Assembly: GCA_958009085.1 (NCBI GenBank) | Contig: OY253677.1 | Coordinates: 248,001 to 312,000 of the forward strand | Direction: 5' to 3' | DNA length: 64,000 bases | Source of the DNA: Protoeuglena noctilucae | Lineage: Eukaryota | In this document: one piece after another, positions 8,745 to 42,140 of the stretch | How positions within the stretch are numbered: the first letter of the stretch is position 1 | Layout of the letters: each line of letters begins with the position of its first letter | Notes under the pieces: model-generated | What the model was told of the DNA's origin: nothing | Databases searched by the model: none | Seen by the model: the letters and a program-made list of their open reading frames with translations, nothing else | Made by a program: the position numbers and the translations under genes

Positions 8745-10583
8745 ATGGACGGGCCAGGGCGCCGGCTCGCCTGCCTCCAGCGCCACGTCGCGGTGTCGAC
8801 GGACGCAGCGGTGCGTGATGCATGCGCGTTGTGGCTCCTGCGCAGCGATGGAGGCCCGTGCCGAGGCTTGGCTTTCCTCGATGGGGCAAGAAAGCAGGCA
8901 CTTCACGGGCGATTTGACTTGACGCTCTCAAAGATGTGTCGCCCACGCCAATGACATGTGCGTATTCTTTGCAGGATCATGGTCTGTCGAGCGTGAGGGC
9001 GCTGGAGACGGGGGCCTCCCACCCCGCCCGGAGGTGCGCACGTGGCCCGTCCGCACGTCGCGCGCGCTGCACCGCTGCGAGCGCCCCGACACCCGCTTTC
9101 TAGCTTGCCAACGTCCACTGTGGTGCTGTCGTTCTGGCGGGGGCAGCGTCGCGCCGAGAAACCCCTGCGCACGGCCGCGGCGACCACCTGACCAGCTCGC
9201 CCTGTGCAGGTTCACCGTTGCGGTGCTGGGGGCCGCGGGGGGCATCGGGCAGCCTTTGTCGCTGCTGCTCATGCAAAACCCCAACGTCGCGGAGCTCAGG
9301 TGCTCGTCGGCAGCGCCGCCGTGCCCCTGCGCGCCGCTGCGTGCCGCGGCCCCCGTGACCCTTTGCCCGCCTGCCCCAGGCTCTACGACGTGGTCAACAC
9401 GCCCGGCGTGGCGGCGGACCTGTCTCACATGGACACGGGCGTGCGGGTGCGGTCCTTCGTCAAGCAGGAGTCGCTCTCAGACGCCCTCCGGGGGTGCCAC
9501 CTGGTGGTCATCCCGGCTGGGGTGCCCCGCAAGCCCGGCATGACCCGGGACGACCTCTTCAACATCAACGCGGGCATCGTGCGGTCCCTCTGCGAGGCCA
9601 TCGCCCACGCCTGCCCCCACGCGTGGGTCAACATCATCTCGGTGCGTGCAGCAAGCACGGGGCGCCTGTACCCGTCCGTGCGCCCTGCGGGGTCCGTGCC
9701 TCAGCCCCTCTGCGCTCCACCTCCCCTGCCCGCAGAACCCCGTCAACTCCACAGTGCCCATCGCCCACGAGGTCTTCCGGTCGCGGGGCGTCGACAACGC
9801 CGCCCGCGTGTTTGGCGTCACCACCCTCGACGTCGTACGCGCCAACACCTTCTTCGCCGAGGCCATTCGGGCGGACCCCAACCAGGTCGCCGTGCCCGTC
9901 ATCGGGGGCCACGCGGGCAAGACCATCCTGCCCCTCTTCTCCCAGGCGAGCGCAGCTGAGCTCACCTATGGGGTGCGCCAGAAGGGCCCTGGACGCCCCG
10001 CAGTCTCCGTGGCTCGACCGCGACAGGCGCCACCTCCGCCGCGGCATCGCAGGCCAGGCCGTCCCCCTGGGGCCTGGCCCCTGCGGACCTGGAGGCGCTG
10101 ACGGTGCGGACGCAGAATGCGGGCACGGAGGTGGTGGAGGCCAAGGCAGGGGCGGGGTCGGCCACGCTCTCGATGGCCTACGCGGCCGCGCGGTTCGCGG
10201 GGTCCTGCCTGCGGGCCATGGCGGGGGAGCCCGGCGTCACCGAGTGCGCCTTCGTCAAGTCCGGGCTGGCACCGCCCCTGCCCTTCTTCGCCAGCCCCCT
10301 GCGGCTGGGGCCCGCGGGGGTGTCCGAGTTCCTCCCACTGGGTGAGCGCATGTGCCCGGTCGCGGCTATGCCTGGCTCTGCACATACATGCGTCCCTTGC
10401 TTGTCGTGTGCCCTCTCGCACTGATCTGGGCACGCCCCCCTGCGCTGCTGTCGCAGGCAAGCTCTCCGACTACGAGCGGAGGTCTCTGGAGGACATGAAG
10501 GAGGAGCTGGCACAGAGCATCCGCAAGGGGGTCGAGTTCGCGGGGGCCCCTCCCCCGGGGCAGGCACAGGCCAGGGCCGCGTA
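8745..10583 (+). CDS. MDH: NAD-dependent malate dehydrogenase, peroxisomal/glyoxysomal type
   Basis: [73 protein letters not shown] and [25 protein letters not shown]. The first exon [15 protein letters not shown] contains a PTS2-like nonapeptide. Confidence 0.95.
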
Positions 10584-15890: not shown

Positions 15891-16087
15891 ATGTTGAAGC
15901 GTGGCGCGCGATGCCGCGGCTCGCGCATTGTGGGAAGGACGCAGAGAGAGCGCAAAGTGCTCATTCGAGGCACGTAGGAGTCGTCCGTAGACAAGAGTGA
16001 TAGACAAGCTACCTAGGAAGGAAAAGTTCTGCCATAGGGCAGGCGACGTGGGGCATTTCGCCTAGGCTGTCCCCGCCCCCGCGCCCG

Positions 16088-17586
16088 TCACCATCCCGCC
16101 TCGTCCAGCGTCGTCGTCCGCGGCTGCGCCTCCGCGTCCGGATCCGCCTCTTCCTCGGCCTGCAGCTCCAGCTCCAGGGGCTGCCGCCCCGTCTCGTTGC
16201 GGAAGAGCCCCTTGAGGTTGATGAAGGACACGCCCTCCAGCGACGACACCACCAGGTCCGCGGCCGTCAGCTCGTACACGGGGTGCGTGCCCGACACGCA
16301 CAGGCACTGCATGCCCACCTCGTGCGCCGCCTCCACGCTCATGTTGTTGTCCGACACCACCACCGTGCGTAGGGGCGGACGCCCCATCTCCTGCAACCAC
16401 GAGGGGAGGCGCAGTGACGGGCCACGACCCGCATGCCGACCCTACGCGCGTGCAGGTCAGCCCGCGCTTATCCCACCCCCGGAACCCGCGCCCGGCCTCT
16501 CGTCCGCCCACCTGGCACGCGTAGAGGTACATCTCCGGGTCGGGCCGCGCGCGCTGCACGTCCTCGGCGCTGAGGACGGCCGCGAAGGGAGCCTCGTCGC
16601 CCGTCCGCGGGACCCCCAGCGCCGCCAGCGTGGCCCGCACGCGCGCCTCGGGCGCCACCGACACAAGGGCCACGGGCACCCCGTTGGCGCGCAGCGTCTG
16701 GATCAGACGGCGCGCCCCGGGGACCTCGTGCGGCGCGCGGCCCTGCACGGCCTGCTGGTAGATCTGCTCCTTGCGCTGCGCCAGGCGCCTGCGGAAGAGG
16801 CGGCAACGAGTGTGTGGGTCCTGGCCAGAGCGCACTGCTGCCCCCCTAGGCGGTTCATCGCTGCCCGGACCTGAGCTCTTGGGGGTTCCTGGTCCAGCAG
16901 AAGCACTCGGAGATGGCCTGCTCGGCCTTCATCAGCACGGCGCGCTTCAGCTGCCACTGGAAGGGCGGGCGCTGCCCCTCCTCGTGCGCCAGCTTGAGCC
17001 ACGACTGGGCGTGCTCCTCGCTCGCGTCAACCACCAGCGCGCCCTCCATCTCCATAATGACGCCCATCCAGTCGGTCGAGAGCCGCTTGTGACGCTCCAG
17101 AGGGTTGGCCAACATGGGGTCGTCCACCACGCCCTCCAGCACGCGCGGCATCGGCCTCAGCGGCGCGCCCTCCCTGCGGCGACGTGCGGAGAGATCACGA
17201 CGGTGAGGGAGGCGGAAGAGTCGGAGCCGCGGGCGCGTGGGGGAGCGAAGAACGAGGCCCGACGAGCAAAGCCAGGCGCGCGAGATTTTCCCCCAGCCAA
17301 AGCGCCCCGAGGTCCGAGGGCCGCCCACGCAATGCGTCATACACGCCGTAGGTCGAGGCAGCGAGGCGAGATGCGGCGGATGCCGTCGCGGCCCGGACAA
17401 AGCGCAGAGAAGAAAGCAAGTGCATCCTCGAGAAACGGGCGGCCCTCAACGAGCCCGCCCCGCACGTTTGTCAAACGAAACGAGCGGGCGCGCGTCCCCA
17501 GCGGGGCGAATGGGGGGCGGGCACGGGGGGCTCACAATCGCGCCCCCGCGGGCAGTGCGCCTCTGCTCGACGACGCTGAAGCGCAT
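16088..17586 (-). CDS. HAD-superfamily phosphatase, PyrP2/ARPP-phosphatase-like (riboflavin pathway); 5' exons unresolved
   Basis: DDPMLANPLERHKRLSTDWMGVIMEMEG...SWLKLAHEEGQRPP...MKAEQAISECFCWTRNP, AEDVQRARPDPEMYLY, and SVEAAHEVGMQC...HPVYELTAADLVV resemble the plant chloroplast At4g11570-type enzyme (from recall). The 5' coordinate is uncertain. Confidence 0.8.
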
Positions 17587-24733: not shown

Positions 24734-26768
24734 ATGGGATGCTGCGCGAGTAGGCCACCCAGGGCAGGCGCCTCCCCGCCCCGCCCTGTGGCGGAGCCGG
24801 ACGCCCGGCCCAAGGACCGTGACGAGATAGTCACGAATAGCACGTCGGAGGCGCCGGCGGGCTCTGCAAGCCTGTCCCGGAGTCCCTCCGCGGTCATCGA
24901 CCGCCTCGCGCCAAAACAAGCTCGTTTCGAGTTTTTAAGGGACGCCGACTTGCTTGAAGCCAGCTATATGGTGCGCGGTGGTTTTGCCGCAAGCGACCGC
25001 GCTACCACAGCGCGATGCCGCGTGCAAACAATTTTGTGCGTGTATGCCGCAGCCGGGGACGCGCGAGTGGCTGGACGAGGACATCCGCAAGTGGGTGATG
25101 CAAGAAGAGCAGGGTGATGAGGGAGGCGCGCGGGTTCTGCTTTTGCTGGGGCCGGCAGGTGAGGGCACAAATGAGGACAAGGGCGTGACCTTTGCAGGCC
25201 GCACAAGAAATGCCCTCCTTCCCTGCAGGCGTGGGAAAGACGGCGTACGCCGCTCACGCCGCCTCGCTGCTGGAGGAGGAGGGCCGCCTCCTCGGGGGCC
25301 ACTTCTTCCGCGCCCGGGACGCCACCCGCACTGACCCCGCCACCGTGGCACGCGCCCTCGCCTGCCAGGCGGCCGCCGCGGTGCCCGGAGCCGCCGCAGC
25401 GTTCGATCGCGCTCTCTCGGAACTCGAGGCGGGCCCGGATGGGGGACTGAGCCAGCCGGCATCTGCGTGGTTCAGCAGGTGGGGCAGGGTCACGCTCTGC
25501 ACAGCCATGTCGGATGCCTCTGCCTCGTCATCCGCGCCCGCTCGTTCTCGCAGGCTGGTCGCGGACCCGCTGCGGGAGGTCCCTCGCCCCGCCGTGCCCC
25601 GCATGCTGGTGCTGGACGCGCTGGACGAGGCGGCCGAGGCGGCGGTGCTGCAGGCGGTGGCGCTGTGCGTGCGGAGACTGCCCGGCTGGGTGCGGGTGCT
25701 GGCGACCGCTCGCCCGGGCGGCCGCGTGGACCGTGCCCTAGAGCTGCTGCGGGTGCGGGTGGTGGACCTGGGGGGGGAGAGGGCCCACGAGGACGTGCGG
25801 GCGTTTGTGCGGGGGAGCCTGCGCACGCGGGGGCTCTCGGACGAGCAGCGGGAGGCGGCGGTGGAGGCGGTGGCCTCGCAGAGCGGGGGGTCGTTTGCTT
25901 ACGTGGCGGCCATGCTGTCGATGGTCCGCCGGGAGATGCGCGAGGGGGGTGGCCCTGCCTCTGCGCGCGGCCTCGCGGACACGGCCGTCGGGGCACTGCC
26001 GCCGGGGGAGGCGGGGCTGTTCACGGGGTACCTGAACAGGCGAGGGACGCTGGCAGTGCGAGGGAGGGGCAGATGGGAGGTGCGATGCATTGGGACTGCT
26101 GCAATAGCAGAAGTGATGCCATCTGTGCAGAGAGGCGCAGCGTTTGGGGGAGGCGGACCGTGAGGCCATGCTGGAGCGGCTGCTGCCGGCGCTGGCGGTG
26201 GCGGCGGGGCCCCTCCACCGGTGGGAGGCGGAGGCGCTGGCAGGGAGCGCCCGGGCGGTGACGGCAGTCGCGGAGCTCTTCCCCACCGACGCAGAGGGTC
26301 TCGTAAGGCCGTTCCACGAGTGAGTCACGCCAGAAGGTGGCGAGAAGCTAGTTTACGCTCTCTTCACATCATCGATGTCATGCCTGCTCCCGCTGCGCCC
26401 CCAGGTCTGTTGCGGACTGGCTCGTGAACGGGGCGCCGCCTCCGTGGCGTGTGGACCCCGCGCAGGGACACGCGGCGCACGTGCGGGCCTGGGCCCCCTT
26501 TCTGGAGCACATGGATGGTGGGGGTGGCGCCACGCTGGGCCCCTATGCCGCGGCCCACCTGGTTAACCACGCGGTGCGGGGGGGCGCGCTGGACCTGGCG
26601 GCCCGGGCGTGCGCAAGCCGGGGCTTCCTTCGTGTGGCGTTGGCGGTGTGCCCCGCGTCGCACGTGGTCGGGGAGGTGGTGGAGGCGTCGCGTGCCTTGC
26701 ACGAGGCCGGGCATGCGGGGTCCCGGGGCGCCGTGGAGGCGGCGGAGTGGCTCAGGTGGGACGAGTGA
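24734..26768 (+). CDS. NACHT/STAND-class P-loop NTPase with N-terminal MGCC acylation motif
   Basis: MGCCASR start, PGTREWL, Walker A split by an intron (LLGPAG|VGKT), GHFF, Walker B MLVLDALDE, VLATAR, SGGSFAY and PFHE|SVADWL...VDPAQGH. Stop at 26768. Confidence 0.85.
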
Positions 26769-31311: not shown

Positions 31312-34300
31312 TCAGAGGAGGAGGGCGACAGCACCCAGCACCACCAGGCCCGAGCTGACCAGGGTGGCGGCGGCGCCGCTTTTCTTCGTCGGCGCGGGCG
31401 TGGACGAGGGCGTCGAGGAGCCGGGGCCTGAAGTGGGGGCGGGGGTGGGGACCGTCGCGACGGATGCCACCACGGACGGCACCTGGAGATTGTACAGGGC
31501 CGAGGTGGGGTCGGCCGCCGCGGCGATGAGCGCCGACTGGATGGAAGTGGCCAGCGCCGAGCCGTCCCCAACCGCCGTCACGAGCGCCTGGGCCGCCGTG
31601 TTGGTGGCAGCAGCCACAGCCACGTTGAGGTTCACCGCCACCTGCGGGTAAGAACGGGCGAGTGAGATAAATGTACCCAGCTCTGTGAGGCCTTTGACAG
31701 TTAACATGCAGCATGCAAGCGCCCTCAGCAAGCAGCAGCACTCACGTCAAGGAGCGCACGGCGCGACGTGGAAGCCGTGACGACGACTGACGAGGTGGGC
31801 ACGCCGAGCTTGGTGGCAACAGTGCTCTGGATCTGGGCCTCGATGGCGGCAAGCTGGACGCTCGAGGGCTGGGTCTTGAACGAGAGCGTGACCGTGAACT
31901 TGGCCTGGGGCGTGCCCGAGGCGATGGGCGTGGGGGTCGGGAAGAGGTCGTTGATGACGATGTTCATCGAAAACACGTCCGACGTCTGGTAGCCCGAGCC
32001 TGCTGTCTTGGGGCTGCACGACAGCACCAGCGTCGTGGCCGAGCCGGTGACGCTGGGCATGGCCGACAGGTACACTGCCGTGGAGGACGTGCCCACTGCT
32101 ATGTCGGGCGTGGTGGCCGTGGAGGACGCCAGGACCGAGCCGGTGTAGGTGGGGGAGTTCTTGGCGTTGGTCAGCGTGCAGTCGACCGTGACGGCCTGGT
32201 TGAGGGCCTCCAGGTTGATGAGCTCGCCCGCCGCGTACTGCGTCTGCTCAATGGCCTGGATGGACGTGACCTGGGAGCCAGCCGTGAGCGCCTTGCCCTT
32301 GGAGTCGGTGACAATGGCCTTGGTGCCGGTCACAAACACCACCGTCTGGTTCCGCATATATACGTCAAACTTGGCCGCCTCGGTCGTGTAGCCGCCGGCC
32401 GACGACGAAGGCGTGCATGTGTAGGTCACCGTCTTGTCGGCGCTGATGGTCAGCGAGGTCGGGATGGCGACGCTGACGGCGCTGCCGCCCACCAGGTTGC
32501 TAGTCGTGGACATGGAGAGGGTGGACGTGACGTTGGGCAGCGTGGCCGTGTCGCTCGACGTGCACGTCACTGAGACAGCTGCACTCGGGGGGACTGTCGT
32601 GTAGAGCTTGACCAGGGCACCGGACGTGCTGCTCTGGAGCTCGAACACGGCCGGCGTGAGCGAGGCCGAGCCCGAAGTCAGGAGGGTGCCGCTGGCGACA
32701 GACGTGCCACTGGCGGTCGTGGCAGAAGAGCCGGCCACAGCCACCAGGGCGCGGGCGAGGACCACCACGTCGAACTTCACGCTCTCGGTGCCCTTGTAGG
32801 GCGACGAGGCACACACCACCGTGCACGTGTAGGTCACGGTCGTGTTCTTGGTCACAGCTGCAGGGTTGGGCAGCGACAGTGCCGTGCCGGCGTTCAGGAG
32901 GCCCGAGACGGTAACGTCCGTCATCACGGACGTGTTGTTCGAGGCGCAGTAGACGTCCACTGCCACCTCCTTGTTGGACGAGTCCATGGCGGGCGTCTTG
33001 GTCATCAGCTTGACCACGTCGTTCCGGCCAGCGTACATGATGAGCAGCGGCGCCAGGGAGGCGGTCGTCGAGTAGCCGACGTTGGTGTCGGCCGTGATGG
33101 ACAGGAGCGTCGTGTTGTTAATGGCGGACGAGCCTGCCACGGCCATCAGGCCGTAGTAGTACACGTACACGTCAAACTTGACCGAGTCGGTCGTGTCCAG
33201 GCCGCCGGCCGCCGTCGTCGGAGCGCACGTGTAGGTCACGGTCGTGTCGCCGGTCAGGGTGCCCATGGGCGTGGGGATCTGGATGTTGACGGTTGAAGTG
33301 CCCGAGACGGACAGGCCTGTGATGCTGGCCAGCACGGTTGAGGCGCTGCTTGTGCAGCCGAACGTGACCGTGGCCGTGGCGTTCAGGCTGATGGTCGCGA
33401 TTGCGCCCGAGGTCGTCGACTGGCCGTACATGAGGGCCGGCGTGATGGCGAGCGAGCCGCCGCCCGAGATGTCCGTGCCGGACGCGAGCGCCAGGTTGTC
33501 CGCGCGAATGGCGGAAGAACCGGCCTTGATGGCGGGCTTGAGGGCCTTGACCTTGACGTCGAAGAAGACGGTGCCCGTCACGGTCGTCTTGGCCGCGGCC
33601 GGGGTCGTGGGGGCGGGGGTGGCCGTCGACGCGGGCGTAGAGGCCTGAGTGGCAGCGGGGGTGGGCGCCGTGGTGGCGGCCGGCGTGCTAGAGGTAGTCG
33701 CTGCAGGCGTCGGGGCGGGTGTGGGCGCGGCCACGGAGCCGGGGGTGCACGTGTAGGTCACGGTGGTGTCGGCCGAGACGGACGAGGCCACCGGGATCGT
33801 GATGGCCACGGCGGTGGCGGTGGACAGGGACACGTTGATGTCCGCGAGCACGGTCGAGTTGCTAGACTTGCACGAATAGGTCGTGGCCGTTTGGGGGGCC
33901 GCCGTGGCCTGCAGGGCCACGATGGTGCTGGAGGCCGCCGCGCCCTCGTACACGACAGGCGTGCGCGAGGCAATGCCCGACCCGAGGATGGAGCCGCCGG
34001 CAGTGAGGGTCGTGGTCCCATCAGCGGCCGTGCCTGCAGCCGAGCCCGCCACAACCTGGGCGGTGGGGTTGGAGACGAACACGTCAAAGGTGACGCTCAC
34101 GGTGGTCGCGAAGCCGCCAGCCGCGGCACTGGGGGCGCACGTGAAGGTGACGAGCGTGCCCGCCGAGACGACCGCGGGAGTGGGGAGGACAAGGTTGACG
34201 GCGGTGGTCGTAGAGACAGAGGTGGCCGCCACGTCGCCGATGACGGTCTTGTTGCTCGACGTGCACACGTAGCTGACGGCAGCCGTGGGGGCCACGTTGA

Positions 34301-37300
34301 CCTTCAGCGCGACCGTGGAGCCTGCCGCGTAGGTGACGCCCGCGTAGAGCTGCACCGTCTTGGCCAGGGACCCGCCGCCACTGATCTTGGTGGACGTGGA
34401 GAGGGGCGTGTTGCCATCTGCGGCTGTGAGCGCCGCGCTAGGGTAGACGTCGACCATGCGGGGCACGACCGTCACGTCAAACGTGAACGAGTCGGCCGTG
34501 GTGAGGCCGCCCGCGTTGGCCGTAGGGGCGCACGTGAAGGTGACCGTGGTGGCCGTCGAGACGTCGCCAGCAGCGCCGAAGGTGAGGCCCACGGCTGTGG
34601 TGGTAGACACGCTGGCCGTCACGTCCGCGAGGGTCTTGCTGTCCGAGGACGTGCACTTGTAGGTCACGGCGGCCGAGGGAGTGCCGTTGGCCACCAGCTG
34701 GACGAGGGCGCCGGCAGCGGGGGTCACGGTCGTCACGATCGTGGGCGTCTTGGCAGCGTTGCCAGAGGCCAGGGCAGTGCCCTGCGCCAGCGTGGCCCCG
34801 GCTGCCGTGGTCGCAGCCGTGCCGGCCTGGGCAGACACGGCCAGGGGCACGACCGTCACGTCGAAGGTGAACGTGTCGGAGGTCGTCACGCCGCCCGCGG
34901 CGGCCGTGGGGGCGCACGTGTAGGTCACCGTCGTTGCCTTGTCGATCTGGCCGCTCTGGGGCAGGCCCACCGATACGGCCGTGGTGCTGTTGACCTGGAC
35001 CGACGACACGCTGCCGAGCACGGACGTGTTAGAGGACGTGCACGAGTAGGTGATGGTCGCCGTCGGTGTAGAGTTGGCCTGCAGCGCCACCACATTAGAG
35101 ATGCTGCTCGCCGCTGCCAGCTCGATGATCTGCGGGGTGGCTGACGCCTTGCCGGACACCAGCATCGTGCTGGTGGTCATGGCCGTCTTGCCATCCGTGG
35201 CCGTCTGGGCGGTACCGCTGTAGGCCGCGACCACGATCGCCTTGACGTGGACCGTGAAGGCCACGCTCTCGGATGTCGTCAGGCCGCCCGCGCTGGCCTT
35301 GGGGGTGCAGGTGATGATCACGTCCGTGTCGGCGTTGATGGAGCCCGGGGTCGGCAGCGTGATGGCCGCCTTGGTCGACGACAGCGTCACGTCCGAGATG
35401 GTCCCGATCACGCTCGAGTTGTTGCTCGTGCAGGCGTACGTGACCGAGGCGCTCGTTCCGCTGGTGGCGGGCGTCGTGTTGGCCAGCAGCTCGACGGTCG
35501 TGCCAAGGCCCGTCGACTGGCCCTCGTACATCACGAAAGACTTGCCCGAGGGCAGGGCCGTGTCGGCGGCCAGGGTGGTGCCGTCGCCCAGGGTCTGCGA
35601 CGAAGCAGCCGCCGCCTGGACGTTGACTGCCACCACGTTGACCCAGAAAGTCGCAGAGTCGGTCGTGGCCAGGTTGCCGAACGCCGCGGTGGGAGCGCAC
35701 GTGTAGCTGACCTGCACGTTGGTCGAGCCCATGTTGGTCGGGGCGGGGAGCGTGATGGCGTCCGCAGTCGTGTCATTGGTAATGGAAACGGAGACGATGT
35801 CCGGCATGATGTTGGAGTTGCTGGACGAGCATTTGACCGTGCCCGTCGCGCCCGGAGCCGTGTTCTGCTGCAGCAGGACCTTGGAGGTGTCGGAGCCCGC
35901 GCCCTCAAAGACCTGCACCGCCAGCGCGGCGTTGTACGTGCTGCTCGTCAGGTCGGTGGATGTGCTGCCGAAGGCCGTGGCGTTGCCGTTCAGGACGGTG
36001 GTGGCCGCGGGGACGGGCGTCAGCTTGGCGCGCATGACGTACACGTCAAACTTGACCGTGTAGTTGGACGGGGCCGTGCCCGTGAAGACGAACCCGCCGC
36101 CGCTGGTAGGCGAGCACGTGTAGGTGACAGTGGTGTCGGCCGAGATGCCAGTGACCGCCGGGATCGTGAAGGTCACGCTGGTGCTGGAAACGGAGAAGGC
36201 CGCCACGGCGGGGGCGATCGTGTTGCTCGAGCTGCAGGAGAAGGACACGGTGCCCGTGGCGCCCTGCGACCCCGTGGGCGTGTAGTTGAGCTGGAGGCCA
36301 ATTTGGCCGGTCGACGCGGACCCCTCGTACAGCACGGGCGTCATGGATGTCGAGCCAGCCGTCGAGTAGCCGATGGACGTGCCCGAGGCGATCGTGGTGC
36401 CGTCCGACTGGCGCGTCAGGGTGGATGCGCTGACCACTGCCGAGACGGAGCGCGGCATGATCGTGACCTGGAAGCTCACGGCCTGGCCCGCCGTCACGCC
36501 CGTCGGCGCGGGGGAGGACGCAACCGTGCAGGTGACCGTCACAGTCACGGCCGACGTGGTGGCGGTGGGGGCGCCAAAATCGATGGAGGCCGTGGTGGCA
36601 CCGCTGACCGTCACGGCAGAGGGGCTGGCGAGAGCCGCGGTGGTCCCGCTCACGCAGTTGACGGTGGCCGTGGCCGAGTTGCCGAACGAGAGCGTGGCGA
36701 TGGCCCCGGCGGCCGTGTCCTCACCCTCGAAGATGCGGGGCGTGAGGCACGTGGAAGTGCTGAGGACGGTGCCCGCCGTGATCTGGGCCGTCGGCATCGT
36801 GCTGCGGTAGGCTGCAGAGCCTGCGACCGCCTGCATCTGGGGCGTCACGTCGAGGATGAAGGCCGTCTTGATGCTGGACCACCCGTTCGTGGAGTCGTTG
36901 GCGGTGCACTTGACGTAGAACTTGGTCTGCGTCACGTTCTGGATCGTGATGGCCGTCGTGGTGGCAGAAGTGCCCTGCGCGGCGATGTTGTTGGCGGTCG
37001 ACGTGCCCGTGTTGGCGGTCGTGGCGAACGTGAACGTCTCAGAGGTCGTTCCGCCCACCGTGAAGGCGCTCGAGGCCTTGGTGGAGAAGGCCGAGTCGCT
37101 GTACGCCGTGCACGACACGACGCTGCCGCCCGTCAGGGGCGTGTCGGCGGACCCGTTCTGGAACTTCAGCGTCACCGAGTCGCCGCCGACCTGGGACACC
37201 TTGCCAAAGGCCGTGCTCATTGTCGGGTTGTTCATGGCCCAGACTGACGTGGTGTTGCCACTGACCTTCAGGAGGACGATGTCGCCATCCGCCACGGACG

Positions 37301-40300
37301 GGTAGGCGGTGCCCAGGGTCAGGTTTCGTGCAGTCGTGGACCCGGACGTGCCGAACGATTTGGTGTAGTCGGTCGAGGTGGCGGAGTTGGGGAGGTTGAT
37401 TGTGTTGCCGCTCGTGCACGCGACGCTGATGGAAGCCCCCGCGTTTGCGCCGTTGAGCTTGACGGCGAGCAGGTAGCCCGCGGTCGGCGTCATGTACTCC
37501 TTGTCGACGACCTTGACCGTGCTGGGCACGATGGTCCCCGAGCTGAGGGAGCTCCCGCTGGTCAGGGACGTGTTGGAGCCAGCCACAATGAGGATCTGCA
37601 TGGGCTGAATCACGATGCTGACCGAGAAGCCGTCCGAGGTCGTCAGGTGGTTGGCCGCCGTCGTGACCTTGCACGTCAGCGTGATGGTCTTCGAGGTCGT
37701 GATGGAGTTCGGGGTGTTGAGGGTCACGTTGACGGCAGTCGTGTCCGTCACGGCAGCCGCTGTGGGGGTCGCGCTGAAGTCGCTCGTCCCCGACTCGGTG
37801 CAGGTCAGCGCGTTGGCACCGCCAGAACTGCCGTTCAGCGCCACCGTAAGCACCGTGCCGCCTGCATCAGCCTGGCCCTCCACCACGACCACCTGGCCCA
37901 GGGAGCTGCTGCCGATCGTCGACACGATGGCCGTGTTCGCGCCATACGCCGTCAGGTTGCCCGTGCTGTCGACGGACTTGTAAGCAGCCGACTGGGCTGT
38001 CACGATGAAGCCCAGCGGCTGGAGCGTCAGGTTGAGCTGGAAGCCGTCCGATGTTGTCAGGTGGTTCCCCGCGGTGTTGACCTTGCATGTCAGAGTGATG
38101 CTGATGGGGGAGCTCAGGTCCGCCACCGTCATCATGTCCATGGCCACCTGGGTCGTGTCGGTGACGTTCGCAACCGTGGGCACAGTGCTGCTGGCGAAGT
38201 TTGAGGCGGTGGTCGTCGTGCATGTGAGGGCATTGGCGCCCCCCGATGCACCGTTCAGCGAGACCTTGATTGTGTTACCCGCAGTGTCGGCCTGGCCCTC
38301 GAGCAGGTACACGGTCGTGTTGGAAGTCCCGCTGATGGCAGCGGTGATGGCCGTGGCTGTGCCGAACGTGGTCAGCGCGTTGGTGGACGCCACGCTCTTG
38401 ATGGCGCCCGTCTGGGCCGTCACGATGAAGCCCAGCGGCTGCAGGACGATGTTCAGGCTGAAGCCATCGCTGGTCTGCAGGTGGTTGCCCGCCGCAGCCA
38501 CCGTGCACGTCAGCGTGATGGTCTTGGCCGTGGACAGGTCGGCGATTGTGTTCATATTGACAGCCACGTTGGTCGTGGTCGTCACGGGGAGGACGGTGGG
38601 GACGACACTGTTGGAGAAATCAGAGGCGGTCGTCGTCGTGCACGACATCTGGTTGGCGCCGCCCGAGTTGCCGTTCAGCTGCACCTGGAGGACCGTGCCG
38701 CCCACGAGGGCAGCCGTGACCCCGCCGAGCGGGTTCCCGAGCGCCGTCGCGTTGGCCGCGCTGACCGTGAACGTGAGGGCCGTGGACACGTTGGAGCCAG
38801 TGAGAGCGTAGACGACTTTCACCGTAACGTTTGCAGCCCAGGTGCCTCCGAGGTAAACGACGTCCACTGCTTTCACGTTGGTGTTCTTCGCGATGGCATT
38901 GGCCCCGGCGACGGTCCCCGCCGCCGTCGACACCACCGTGGGAGTGGTCGTCTGGGCCGTGTTGGCCGTGCCTGCCGTGATGGTGAAGGCGTTCGTCGTG
39001 CTGAGCGCGGCCGTCCCATTCAACACCTTGGACAGGGCGGCCGCGAGGGCGCTTGCGACAGTGGTGGTCGACGCAACAGAAGTTGAGTCGAGCGTCAGAG
39101 TGACGACGACGTTCCCGATGGTCACCGTAACGGTGTTGCCGGTCGCAGGAGTCCCGCCGATGGTGACCGTGTCGACCTGCTTCGTGCCCGCCGCGTTGGC
39201 CGTCGTCGTGGCCTGGGTAGCCGTCGTCGCAGTCCCCCCCGTGGCGGTGACCGTGTAGGTCGGCAGCGCCGTGCCCGCCGTCGCGGCGGTGATGGTGACC
39301 ACATTTGTGCTGCTGGAGATCGCGGCGCCGCCGAGCTGCGGGCCCAGCGCAGTCTTGAGCCCCGCGATGACCTGCGCCAGGGTCGTCCCATCCGTCGAGT
39401 TGACCGTGTACTTCCACGACACGGCTGCACCGGTGGTCGAGTCGGCGACAGTGATCGTGTCGGTCGCCACAAACGTGCCGCTGAGGGCGATTGCGTCTAC
39501 CTGCTTTACGTTGGTGCTCTTGGCCATAATGGCGGAAGCGAGGCCCCCCACGGCGCTGGAGCCTGTCCCCACCTGGGCAACAGTGACCGTGTACGTGTCA
39601 ATCACCGCATTCACCGCTGTGGCAGTGAGCAAGAGGACGTTGTCCGTGGCGATGGTGGCGCCGCCAAGCGGCGAAGCCACCGCGGCCTTGACCCCCGCGG
39701 CCACGTTGGCAAGCGTCACCCCGTCGGTGCTGTTGGCCGTGTACGTGACCGTCGTCTTCACGTTGGTCGTGTCCACCTCCACGGCCACGGTATCGGTCGC
39801 AACGTAGGTGCCGCTGAGGGCCACCTGGTCCTGCTGGAACGCAGTGGTACTCGCTGCAACAACACTTTGCTTAGTACCTGCGGCACTTGACCCTGTCCCG
39901 ACCCTGCTAACGGTCAGCGTGGTCGTGAACGACGAGTTGACTGCGCCAGCCGTCAGCAGCAGCGCCCCGGCCGTCGAATCCGCGTCAGTCTGCCCTTCCA
40001 GCAAGAAGACCGTGTCATTGCTCGACCCGCCCTTCACGGCCGTCAGCGTCGTGGCAGAGCCGAACGGGGTGAGCACGTTAGTCGACGCCACGCTCTTGGT
40101 GGCGCCCGACTGGGCCGTCACGATGAAGCCCGGCGGCTGGGCGATGACGTTGACAGCGAACCCGTCGCTTACCGTTACGAAGTTATCCGCTCCGCTGCTG
40201 ACGACGCAGGTGACGACTGAGGAAGTCGCCGTAGCTACGTCGCTGAAGGTCTTGAGGTCAACGCCGACCCCGGTGCCAGACAACGAGTTGGCGCTCGCCA

Positions 40301-42140
40301 CGGCGGACGCAAGGGCGGGGGTGGCCGAGTACGTCGCCCCCGTCGTCGAGCAAGTGAGGGTGTAGCTGCCCCCCGAGGGCACGGCGTTCATGTAGACCTT
40401 GAGCGTGTTCCCAGAGCTGTCAGCCTGCCCCTCGAGGCGGTACACTGTGCCGTTGCTTGGACCGTTTACGACGGACACCAGCGCCGTCTCGGCGGTGAAG
40501 TAGGCGAGCTCGTTCGTGGTCTCGATGCTCTGAATGGCCGTGGTCTGGGCTTTGACGATGAAGCGCACGGGATCAGCGATGACCGTGAAGGTCACGCTAT
40601 CGGTGGTGCTGAGCCCGCCAGCGGCCGAGCTGGGGGCGCACGTGACCGTGACGGACTTCTGCGCGCTGATGGCGGCAACCGTGCCGATGGTAACGTTGAC
40701 GGCGGTGGCAGTAGAGATGGTGCTGGCGACCGTCACGCTGGGGATGACCGTCGTGTCGCTGGGGGTGCAGGTGATGGTCACGGCAGCGGTCGGGGCCGAG
40801 TTGGCCTTGATCGTGACCGTGCCGCCCGCAGTGTCCGCCTGCGCCTCGATGCGGACCACCTGATTGTTGCTGGATGTCAGATCCGTGTTGGCTTTGAAGT
40901 TTGTGTACGTGCCATCGGTGTTGATGGACTGGATGGCGCCGTTGGCTGCAGTGATGACCAGCTTGAGCGGGGTGGCGGCCACGTAGGTTGACGCCGTGCT
41001 GTAGACGCGCCCGGCGGCGTTGGTGGCCGTGCAGGTGAGCAGGATGTTGGAGGCGGTGCTGATGGACTGCACTGCCGGCAGCGTGATGCTCGAGGCCGAG
41101 GTGCCCGAACCGCTGGCGATGGAAACCGTGTAGTCGGTGCTGGTCGTGCTGTTGGCGAGGACGGCGCTCATGGTGCTGTCGACCAGGCACGTGACTGTCA
41201 GCCCCTCGGGGGCGTTCTGGTCCAGGACCACCTTGAAGAGGCCTCCGGCCCCGTAAGCGTTGCCCTCGATGGCCTGCACGCTGTCGTTGGTCGTCAGCTT
41301 CTGATTGGTCAGGAAGTTGGCCCCCGTGTCGCCGCGCATGGCGCTCGTGCCGGGGACGATGGAGAGCACCAGCGGAGTCGCCGTGACGGTGGCGGTCGCC
41401 ACGTCGGTGGACGTCGTCTTGGCCAAGGAGAGGTAGGCGCCCGTGACATCCGCCGCGACGGTGCACGTCACGGTAGCATCCACGCCTGCCGGGATGGGGT
41501 CCACGACGTTGACCGTGAAGGCGTACGTGCCAGCCGTCAGGGTGCTCGGGAGGGTGGTGCCCGAGGTCGCGCTGAGGGAACACGTGATGGTGACGGCCGT
41601 CGTCCCCGCCCCGCACACAAGGCCGGAGGCGCAAGCCGAGCCGGCTGTGAGGGAGGGGAAGGAGACGGTGACGGGGGCAGTGGAGCTCGCCGAGGCCAGC
41701 GTGTACTGGTTGCTGGCGGCGACGGGCGAGGTCGTCTTGGAGGTGACGGTGACCTTTGTGGCGCTGCCGATGCTGCCGGTGGTGCCTGACGTGCAGGTCA
41801 GGTCGAACGAGCCGCCGTCCGCGACGGGGGAGATGACCTGGAGGACAATCTGGGCGTTGAAATCCGCCACCTTGGAGCCGCTTGTCACGACGATGGCGGG
41901 GCCACTGACCAGGGCCGTGGTCGCATCCGTCGTCGTGCTGCCCGTGCCCAGGAGCGTCGACTTGGCCGCGTAGAAGGCGAGGTCAGCCGCGTGCGCGAAG
42001 CCCGCGAGACCGAGCGCCAGGGCGCTGGCGAGGAAAAGGGACCTGCGGCGAGGTAGTAGGCGGAGACAAGGGTGACGACAAACGGAAGAAGCGAAGCGCA
42101 TCCACCGGAATGCAACGTGCGCGGAAACTCACTTGAACAT
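31312..42140 (-). CDS. Giant (~3,544 aa) secreted T/S/A/V-rich repeat protein, putative GPI-anchored adhesin or cell-surface protein
   Basis: Exons are 42140-42133 (ATGTTCAA), 42042-31746 (10,297 nt, open throughout) and 31641-31312. The spliced N-terminus MFKSLFLASALALGLAGFAHA is a signal peptide. It has about 20 two-Cys beta-rich repeats, an SRRALL motif, a PT linker, and a hydrophobic C-terminus KKSGAAATLVSSGLVVLGAVALLL. Confidence 0.88.
31950..41400 (-). repeat. Tandem intragenic protein repeats of about 120-130 aa (about 20 copies)
   Basis: Recurring pattern EG...VxLxxN..P...V(T/S)(Y/F)xCTSS...T(L/I)P...TTVTYTCAP..AAGG.TT.D..(F)DVxV. Near-identical DNA (gtcacgatgaagccc) recurs at about 38000, 38420 and 40117. 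Confidence 0.85.

Follow-up and report, generated by a model that had tools for sequence, protein, structure and literature searches.

In a 64,000-nucleotide (nt) stretch of contig OY253677.1 from Protoeuglena noctilucae (assembly GCA_958009085.1, positions 248,001 to 312,000 of the forward strand; hereafter the window), one repeat of a giant protein encoded on the minus strand is interrupted by a Cys-free array of a different, smaller unit. The explanation that we favour, with moderate confidence, is that this insert forms a tandem branch of 'FD'-like domains, kin to a phage module, which is nested in a repeat of a surface fibre and presents a variable contact surface. The giant protein would be secreted and probably surface-tethered, with at least 19 beta-rich repeats that carry one Cys pair each, and the branch would emerge from the fourth repeat, in the hairpin that joins its LLEGQ and xVxVxLNG strands, as a tandem array in which an alpha/beta domain of ~90 amino acids (aa) alternates with a linker of ~20 aa. 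The domain is a homologue of a module found in marine T7-like cyanophages, where a small protein carries it, likewise nested. Before the divergence of the four known gene copies, one ancestral module would have been duplicated in tandem and in place, in a register offset from the domain boundary, leaving a half-unit at each end of the array.

A hidden Markov model (HMM) of the host repeat, built up from four adjacent repeats, detected 19 copies along the giant protein, and the insert interrupts the fourth of these 19 Cys-pair repeats. The split copy breaks after LLEGQTDADSTAG (aa 712) and continues as GGTVLQVQLNGNSGGANQMSCTTT after 421-424 aa, with the restart at GGTVLQVQLNG (aa 1134), whereas the repeat that follows is uninterrupted (LLEGQADTAGNTIKVSLNGASGGANALTCTTT). 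With the insert removed, the rejoined copy obtained the top score of the 19 (112.2 bits, profile positions 2-114), and therefore both halves of the host repeat are intact; at the sequence level, they jointly make up one full copy of the interrupted parent, as is expected of a nested domain. An earlier note on this DNA, made from the letters alone, had reported one host repeat split by ~420 aa next to a contiguous one, and this feature stands. The range given for it (38704-39975) is one base out of frame, the in-frame insert being 38703-39974 on the minus strand (aa 710-1133).

The insert comprises a C-terminal half-unit, three full units of ~105 aa (U1 to U3, all scored highly by the unit HMM; Table 1) and an N-terminal half-unit (U4). 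The leading piece was matched by the unit HMM in its C-terminal half (8.4 bits, profile positions 66-105) and the trailing piece in its N-terminal half (profile positions 3-54), and the linker RVGTGSSAAG of the leading piece plainly equals AQVGTGSSAVG after U1. Four segments of the order C-half, linker, N-half fit the array exactly, which argues for an out-of-register tandem duplication. The four related units and the half-units at the two ends had been described correctly in the earlier note, as had the amphipathic helix of the first three units; in addition, the fourth unit, for which the note gave no helix, does have one, and this helix of U4 is 8 aa shorter in the window allele, owing to a 24-nt deletion (ATNATALA) behind 38747 (aa ~1115). 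The eight missing codons are present in a 99%-identical relative (P0007) and in a contig of an environmental RNA library (run X11), and the extra 24 nt in this contig therefore identify the U4 deletion as a segregating in-frame indel.

Composition also sets the insert apart. It contains no Cys in 424 residues, as the earlier note had stated, compared to 1.6% elsewhere in the protein (chance ~0.001 by simple arithmetic), and its codon usage shows a shift that is real but small. The GC content at third codon positions (GC3) is 0.840 (356/424) in the insert versus 0.901 (2733/3034) elsewhere (Fisher p = 2.8e-4), and each of 219 other windows of the gene, 424 codons long, had a higher value (minimum 0.882), in agreement with the previously noted local excess of A/T-ending codons. 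Adjustment for amino-acid composition gave an expected insert GC3 of 0.898, so that composition does not account for the shift; over aa 710-755, the observed value is 0.65.

Profile comparisons indicate that the insert units are a family of their own and not host repeats. The alignment to the host-repeat HMM that the earlier note had named as speaking against its reading was absent (hhalign probability 0.17%, E 0.35), and the unit HMM, built from U1-U3, found no match above 5 bits in the rest of the giant protein. An alternative explanation is that the insert represents diverged or degenerate host repeats, or low-complexity T/A/V/G-rich filler without a fold of its own. Its composition is indeed host-like (T 22%, A 19%, V 14%), and BLAST without composition correction aligned it to much of the giant protein, but this self-alignment arises because the T/A/V/G-rich composition is common to insert and host. 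Given the two profile results, the defined and moderately confident predicted fold of the unit and the phage-family matches far above shuffled controls (both described below), this explanation is largely refuted and we give it very little credence. A further idea, that the host hairpin recurs in each unit, was dropped because the profile comparison gave it no support. Among curated families, Pfam returned no row for the insert at E up to 1, NCBIfam none for the insert or for unit 2, and PHROGs only rows with E 0.064-0.98, with no sheath family among them.

The clearest relative outside the gene's own family was found in a marine cyanophage. Foldseek against BFVD returned M4SMY2 of cyanophage KBS-P-1A (E 2.7e-4, 31% identity, 2.6 Å over 106 columns); the phage record was traced via its portal gene, and its sole 207-aa hypothetical gene is HQ634188.1 17132-17755 (AGH57707.1; the phage is also named Synechococcus phage S-RIP2). 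The algal unit HMM scored 25.9 bits on residues 74-156 of this protein, compared to at most 10.0 bits in 1000 whole-protein shuffles, at most 10.9 in 1000 module shuffles and -1.8 for the reversed sequence, and a six-frame scan of the whole phage genome with the window-unit profile had this gene as its sole match (E 3.2e-5). In IMG/VR, 22 loci encode relatives of the phage protein that are 66-94% identical. When 12 full algal units were aligned by hhalign to 21 phage proteins, the probability was 93.8% (E 1.8e-7, 76 columns, 33% identity) and the score 47.8, versus a maximum of 15.1 in 100 column shuffles; with the profile restricted to the four window units, the probability was still 77% (E 2e-5), and for the phage family versus the host repeat it was only 0.33%. 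These matches over the core of three strands, helix and two strands, above all controls, establish at the level of sequence profiles that the unit is kin to the KBS-P-1A/S-RIP2 module, which belongs to an unnamed family.

The phage module is likewise nested, between an N-terminal flank of ~70 aa and a C-terminal flank of ~45 aa, and is preceded by an xVxVVTAxxxG strand. Across the 21 sequences, the module is near-invariant and the best conserved part of the protein, while the flanks are of two alternative types. Judged by profile and predicted structure, the phage protein shares the module with the algal unit; it differs in that the module is a single copy, 33% identical, in a small hypothetical protein without a giant repeat scaffold. 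Pfam assigns it no family and PHROGs at most a marginal match, and the comparison with the algal units ties this uncharacterised family to a fold. Its gene sits among small uncharacterised genes downstream of a 1558-aa gene.

A second, weaker link leads to a bacterium. Against 1.84 billion representative proteins, phmmer with the insert gave three matches, two in the gene's own family and the third to the Thiorhodovibrio litoralis repeat protein WPL13146.1 (P0008; E 6.2e-4). The unit profile aligned to this protein with an hhalign probability of 85.5% over 49 columns (score 35.8 versus at most 16.0 in 100 column shuffles), which suggests a kinship less firmly than for the phage protein. Like the algal array, P0008 consists of tandem ~105-aa repeats with an xIDTYTLGGT / TYTV / helix pattern, but only the N-terminal half aligns, and the repeats are bacterial and not nested; against PDB sequences, P0008 gave only a weak match to MpAFP immunoglobulin (Ig) repeats. 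Further searches yielded nothing beyond the gene's own family. Run against 5.8 billion proteins, the unit profile matched none of the short ones and, among the longer ones, only this family; IMG/VR searched with the insert, GTDB genomes searched with P0008 and P-SSP7 proteins searched with the unit HMM gave no match; 73 pattern matches of the unit alignment in JGI metagenome contigs were not confirmed; and tblastn against 50,697 phage records and 72,556 plasmids had no match, probably through its low-complexity filter. The earlier note had proposed checking whether the best matches are bacterial or phage: the only ones found outside the gene family come from cyanophages and a bacterium, and none is a close homologue.

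The fold was modelled with AlphaFold2 for unit 2 with the preceding hairpin and the linker, on an alignment of five rows (U1-U4 together with the one unit carried by a distant homologue). Model residues 46-136 reached a predicted local distance difference test score (pLDDT) of 70-82, and the preceding 45 residues stayed below 50. The predicted elements are strands 49-53, 63-68 and 75-80, a helix of 15 residues (89-103) and strands 108-111, 115-119 and 130-135; given this confident range, the structural domain would correspond to the unit as drawn in the earlier note, followed by a flexible linker. The model was compared by VIA-align to 48,161 representative chains and, in a second comparison, to Foldseek's top 1000; the structure libraries searched were PDB chains and BFVD.

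In VIA-align, three podovirus nozzle proteins, CbpD, GbpA, a cyanophage sheath and Pseudomonas aeruginosa FliC lay at Z 9.3-8.0. The best match was 8i4m_A (Z 9.3, 2.8 Å over 85 residues), along with the T7 nozzle (6r21_a, 8.8), CbpD (7sqx_A, 8.3), GbpA (8gul_A, 8.2), the sheath (8kee_A, 8.2) and FliC (4nx9_A, 8.0). Further sheaths, the crAss001 auxiliary capsid protein (7qof_a, 7.1), T4 gp11 and FliD (6kty_A, 5.4; 3.5 Å over 83 residues) followed below Z 8.0 down to 5.4. The second comparison agrees (7y1c_Y, Z 9.5, 2.2 Å over 85 residues). All of the top 17 rows in VIA-align and of the top 20 in the second comparison belong to the nozzle/sheath/flagellin/GbpA class, with Ig domains at Z 5.5 or less; in the VIA-align list, these start at rank 18 (Z 5.3 or less). 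Matches with Z 8.0-9.5 extend over 85-92 residues and thus cover the whole domain of ~91 residues. Foldseek against PDB gave no match at E 0.001 or below, its weak top rows being flagellins, FliD, sheaths and T7-type tails, and a PDB sequence search with the insert gave none at E up to 10. A language-model look-up of one unit, which provides leads only, pointed to crAss_AuxCP (0.90), a cluster with 22% Flagellin_IN (0.88), a cluster with 11% Phage_sheath_domII (0.81) and a DUF3383 cluster (overall range 0.81-0.90). Taken together, the model supports placing the unit in the flagellin/FliD/sheath-outer/T7-nozzle-insertion ('FD'-like) fold class.

The members of this class offer both likenesses and differences. 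The predicted unit resembles nozzle proteins (6r21, 8i4m, 7y1c), sheaths (8kee, 9cba, 8foy), FliC (4nx9) and the crAss001 protein (7qof) at Z 7.1-9.5 and 2.2-3.7 Å over 85-92 residues; the giant protein differs from all of them in lacking a sheath core, flagellin D0/D1 helices and a nozzle body (no Pfam match), and here the domain is tandem, eukaryotic and placed inside another repeat. Domain 2 of GbpA (2xwx, 8gul), a spacer or attachment module of a secreted surface-binding protein, and the CbpD module (7sqx) are similarly close (Z 8.2-8.4), but the algal units show no sequence match to them and have no lytic polysaccharide monooxygenase or chitin-binding domain beside them. At E up to 1, neither the insert nor the complete protein was matched by Pfam Flagellin_IN (PF07196), and the families Flagellin_N and Flagellin_C, which we take to represent the D0/D1 helical ends, are absent from the Pfam results for the 3458-aa protein (0 families), so that the protein does not class as a flagellin. 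Nor does it class as a contractile sheath protein: it has no Pfam family and no sheath PHROG (best rows E 0.064 or higher), and the structural matches to sheaths cover only the added domain (chain ranges 81-200). The resemblance to sheath and flagellin domains that the earlier note had pointed to is borne out by the Z scores, and the likeness extends to a sequence-level link with a cyanophage protein family. Its resemblance to S-layer proteins found no counterpart, with no S-layer chain among the structural matches listed and no Pfam or NCBIfam match in what are diverse families. In passages of the published descriptions, the crAss001 'FD' domain is likened to FliD (Z 7.3) and FliC 4NX9 (Z 6.7) (PMC10172136), and GbpA domain 2 to the beta-domain of flagellin p5 (PMC3257281). 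Sheath proteins are described there as bearing additional outward domains (PMC9230969), and in sheath and crAss-type proteins the domain is appended to a conserved core and exposed at the surface (PMC9230969, PMC10172136).

The giant protein has four close relatives that are 80-91% identical overall. The comparison of orthologues suggested in the earlier note showed the array at the same site in all three that cover it (P0002, P0003 and P0005), with the frame open through the insert and indels in multiples of three. Identity to the window protein was 57% in the insert and 87% downstream for P0002, 52% and 88% for P0003, and 59% and 88% for P0005; the variable zone spans about aa 500-1200, and these alignments identify the insert as the fastest-changing part of the giant protein. 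Units were closest to their positional counterparts in 11 of 12 comparisons, and conservation of the core motifs (xVDxxxLGGT, YTVNS, the helix and the xVxTITA strand) extends over 16 units. Which lineage is nearest depends on the unit (U1, window and P0002, 66%; U2, window and P0005, 80%, and P0002 and P0003, 72%; U4, P0003 and P0005, 70%), a mosaic that suggests recombination or conversion. An unrooted maximum-likelihood tree was built from 37 modules. A single branch (support 86/89; present in 82% of bootstrap trees) separates its 17 algal units from the phage and bacterial modules, and U1, U3 and U4 each make up a clade that spans the lineages.

A distant, Cys-rich homologue (P0006; 6044 aa, 31% identical) carries a single unit at aa 1417-1505 (18.3 bits), directly upstream of a repeated Cys-rich element, and only its downstream flank is a repeat element. 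Nesting of this unit in an equivalent host repeat was considered and dropped, as the window host-repeat HMM had no match there. P0004 begins just after the array and shares a 544,778-base contig with P0011, a 1172-aa model that contains the array; the two are probably one gene split by the gene caller at the insert end. P0001 and P0005 both have a longest listed contig of 330,167 bases.

Sequence near-identical to the giant gene is present in marine metagenome and metatranscriptome runs, an occurrence that, with the GC-rich window, the few and partial Pfam domains of its other ORFs and the putative 3' intron, points to a marine eukaryote as the source. Both edges of the insert were crossed by contigs from three different studies, in two RNA libraries (X3, 38663-39526 and 39633-40300; X10, 38585-39117 and 39785-40174) and in one DNA run (X1, 38658-39756 and 39727-40129, at most one mismatch each), and no contig joint removing the insert was seen in the runs compared. 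Contigs of the RNA library X11 cross the upstream edge and leave the window sequence at the downstream edge (38692/38703). When their loose ends at 38692-38703 are translated, one reads as the end of a sister copy's insert and another as a repeat without interruption, so the boundary between conserved and variable sequence is sharp in nature too. Joints labelled 'goes back 1698' proved to be an artefact, as the start of the next repeat resembles the start of the split one. An assembly chimera or an unspliced intron, in which case the insert would be missing from the protein, might be suspected because the gene is repetitive and short-read contigs branch at 38692/38703. This is extremely improbable given the crossing contigs from two RNA-library runs and one DNA run, the open frame with indels in multiples of three in three diverged relatives, and the readable decoding of the branching contigs. 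Two catalogue transcripts match the giant gene, but only in its C-terminal part.

What the branch does is addressed by analogy. As in flagellin, sheath and nozzle proteins, the domain may be an outward-facing decoration and not part of the bearing backbone; the branch is expected to face the medium because this fold projects outward from a conserved core in the nozzle, sheath, flagellin, FliD, crAss capsid and GbpA proteins. The central region of bacterial flagellin is a hypervariable insertion between conserved parts of a filament-forming protein, and it is exposed, evolves fast and varies by indels and domain duplication. The likeness of the algal branch to this region would be a mechanistic analogy: the flagellin scaffold is a helical polymerising core, whereas the algal host scaffold is a chain of Cys-pair beta repeats, and exposure of the branch is presumed. 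Some FD-class domains mediate surface or glycan contact, and the branch might correspondingly serve as a variable recognition or adhesion surface of the fibre, for contact between cells, with particles or with viruses. This function, which we infer purely by analogy, is plausible but falls somewhat short of an even chance. A nearly as likely account, though a doubtful one in its own right, is that weak constraint explains the fast divergence of the branch, which would be a passive decoration or spacer with no part in recognition. It would explain the identity of 52-59% in the insert versus 87-88% elsewhere, the indels, including the segregating 24-nt deletion inside a helix, the lower GC3, and the ratio of synonymous to non-synonymous variant codons (8 to 12). 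It accounts less well for the retention of the four-unit layout and the frame in all three relatives covering the site despite ~45% divergence, for the core motifs conserved across 16 units, and for the phage counterpart, in which the module is the best conserved part of its protein.

Several observations weigh against the nested contact branch as a whole. Fast divergence is also expected from relaxed constraint, and the 20 distinct environmental variant codons (8 synonymous, 12 non-synonymous) give no sign of positive selection. The unit model derives from five sequences and is of only moderate confidence. Best Z values of 7-8 are common for models without a true match, so that Z 8.0-9.5 alone is weak; the scores carry weight because the top rows belong to one class, the whole domain is covered and two other lines of evidence agree. 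AlphaFold of the whole split repeat (four rows) had a mean pLDDT of only 41.5, and a complex prediction of the array flanks (aa 659-755 and 1077-1224, single sequences) left the partner below pLDDT 50. No curated family (Pfam, NCBIfam, PHROGs) matches the insert, and on P0008 the unit HMM scored 7.5 bits, with shuffles reaching up to 6.6-9.7. P0005 may be a paralogue on P0001's contig, in which case the orthologues are partly paralogues, and the contigs across the edges support transcription of the insert, but RNA libraries can contain DNA.

The anatomy of the branch is also compatible with horizontal transfer from a bacterium or phage, followed by grafting into one repeat and multiplication, as the earlier note had suggested; we regard this as possible but rather unlikely. 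Relatives outside the gene family were found only in phages and a bacterium, all VIA-align matches with Z of at least 5.4 are phage or bacterial proteins, insert GC3 is below that of any equal window of the gene, and marine cyanophages share the habitat. A close donor is lacking, however: the best phage match is 33% identical over 76 columns, and tblastn against the phage and plasmid records was empty. The insert predates the split of the four gene copies, being present in all three relatives covering the site with the algal units in a single tree group (86/89), and even the distant P0006 has one unit. Its GC3 of 0.84 is still typical of the host genome; in the 64,000-nt window, 2-kb segments have a GC content of 0.58-0.72, and the giant gene has a GC3 of ~0.90. 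In addition, the tree is unrooted, with phage and bacterium beyond a single branch, and the structures compared were limited to PDB chains and BFVD. Horizontal acquisition is hence not demonstrated, and a recent transfer is unlikely. A bolder version, that an ancient phage or bacterial decoration module was captured by a marine picoeukaryote, placed in a loop of a giant cell-surface fibre and multiplied there, and is now the hypervariable, recombining contact site of this fibre, appears improbable at present. If true, a eukaryote would have domesticated a structural domain of phages, which is rarely seen; the site might, for instance, be the one recognised by the alga's viruses or by its mating or aggregation partners, and the locus would record an arms race.

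Under the favoured explanation of a nested, tandem FD-like branch, the insert would illustrate, in a clean natural case, how a nested domain is later multiplied by out-of-register tandem duplication, and it would offer a concrete, testable candidate for a site of recognition on the cell surface of an ecologically common lineage of plankton. FD-class domains are known as outward decorations of bacterial and phage machines; what would be new is the eukaryotic host and the nested tandem arrangement. The titles and abstract openings among the papers listed in a literature search contained no report of an FD-class domain in a eukaryotic protein.

Table 1 Features of the window, with positions counted from its first letter (aa, residues of the giant protein).
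Feature	Position	Strand	Description
Giant protein open reading frame (ORF)	31725..42101	minus	Single open frame, 3458 aa; signal-peptide-like N-terminus, then 19 Cys-pair repeats detected, ~115-140 aa each
N-terminal part of split host repeat	39966..40127	minus	aa 659-712, FIVTAQ...LLEGQTDADSTAG
Leading C-terminal half-unit and linker	39837..39965	minus	aa 713-755, ALLLTAG...TTTLTV, RVGTGSSAAG...
Unit 1 (U1)	39507..39836	minus	aa 756-865; unit HMM 116.3 bits
Unit 2 (U2)	39183..39506	minus	aa 866-973; unit HMM 125.0 bits; the unit modelled
Unit 3 (U3)	38874..39182	minus	aa 974-1076; unit HMM 83.9 bits
Trailing N-terminal half-unit (U4)	38703..38873	minus	aa 1077-1133; unit HMM 17.7 bits; helix shortened by 24-nt indel
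C-terminal part of split host repeat	38430..38702	minus	aa 1134-1224, GGTVLQVQLNG...MSCTTT...TLTCTV...QPLG; both Cys of the repeat lie here
Putative last exon	31312..31641	minus	109 aa; hydrophobic end TLVSSGLVVLGAVALLL resembling a glycosylphosphatidylinositol (GPI)-anchor signal
ORFs with partial Pfam domains	36-1346, 9204-9956, 16065-16835, 25192-26160		ABC2_membrane_3, Ldh_1_N (positions 30-118 of 141), HAD, NPHP3_N

The giant protein is probably secreted and tethered to the cell surface, because its start resembles a signal peptide and its end a GPI signal, both features being predicted. The stop of the giant ORF is probably not the real gene end, owing to a 3' intron and a further exon that were placed by consensus splice sites and frame continuity only. 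The putative intron (31642..31745, minus strand, 104 nt) has a GTGAGT donor directly after ...RRALLD and a CAG acceptor that ends at 31642. For the whole 3458-aa protein, Pfam gave 0 families at E up to 1, and NCBIfam one row only (E 0.047), on the signal-peptide region. Elsewhere along the protein, a Pro/Thr/Ala-rich stretch of ~50 aa lies between two strands of one repeat at aa ~2795-2870 (window ~33490-33720), and in a region of ~160 aa at aa 1613-1772 (window ~36785-37265) the repeat HMM matches only a partial copy. Among the 41 other long ORFs of the window, four have Pfam domains, all partial, and these four are probably exons of intron-split genes.

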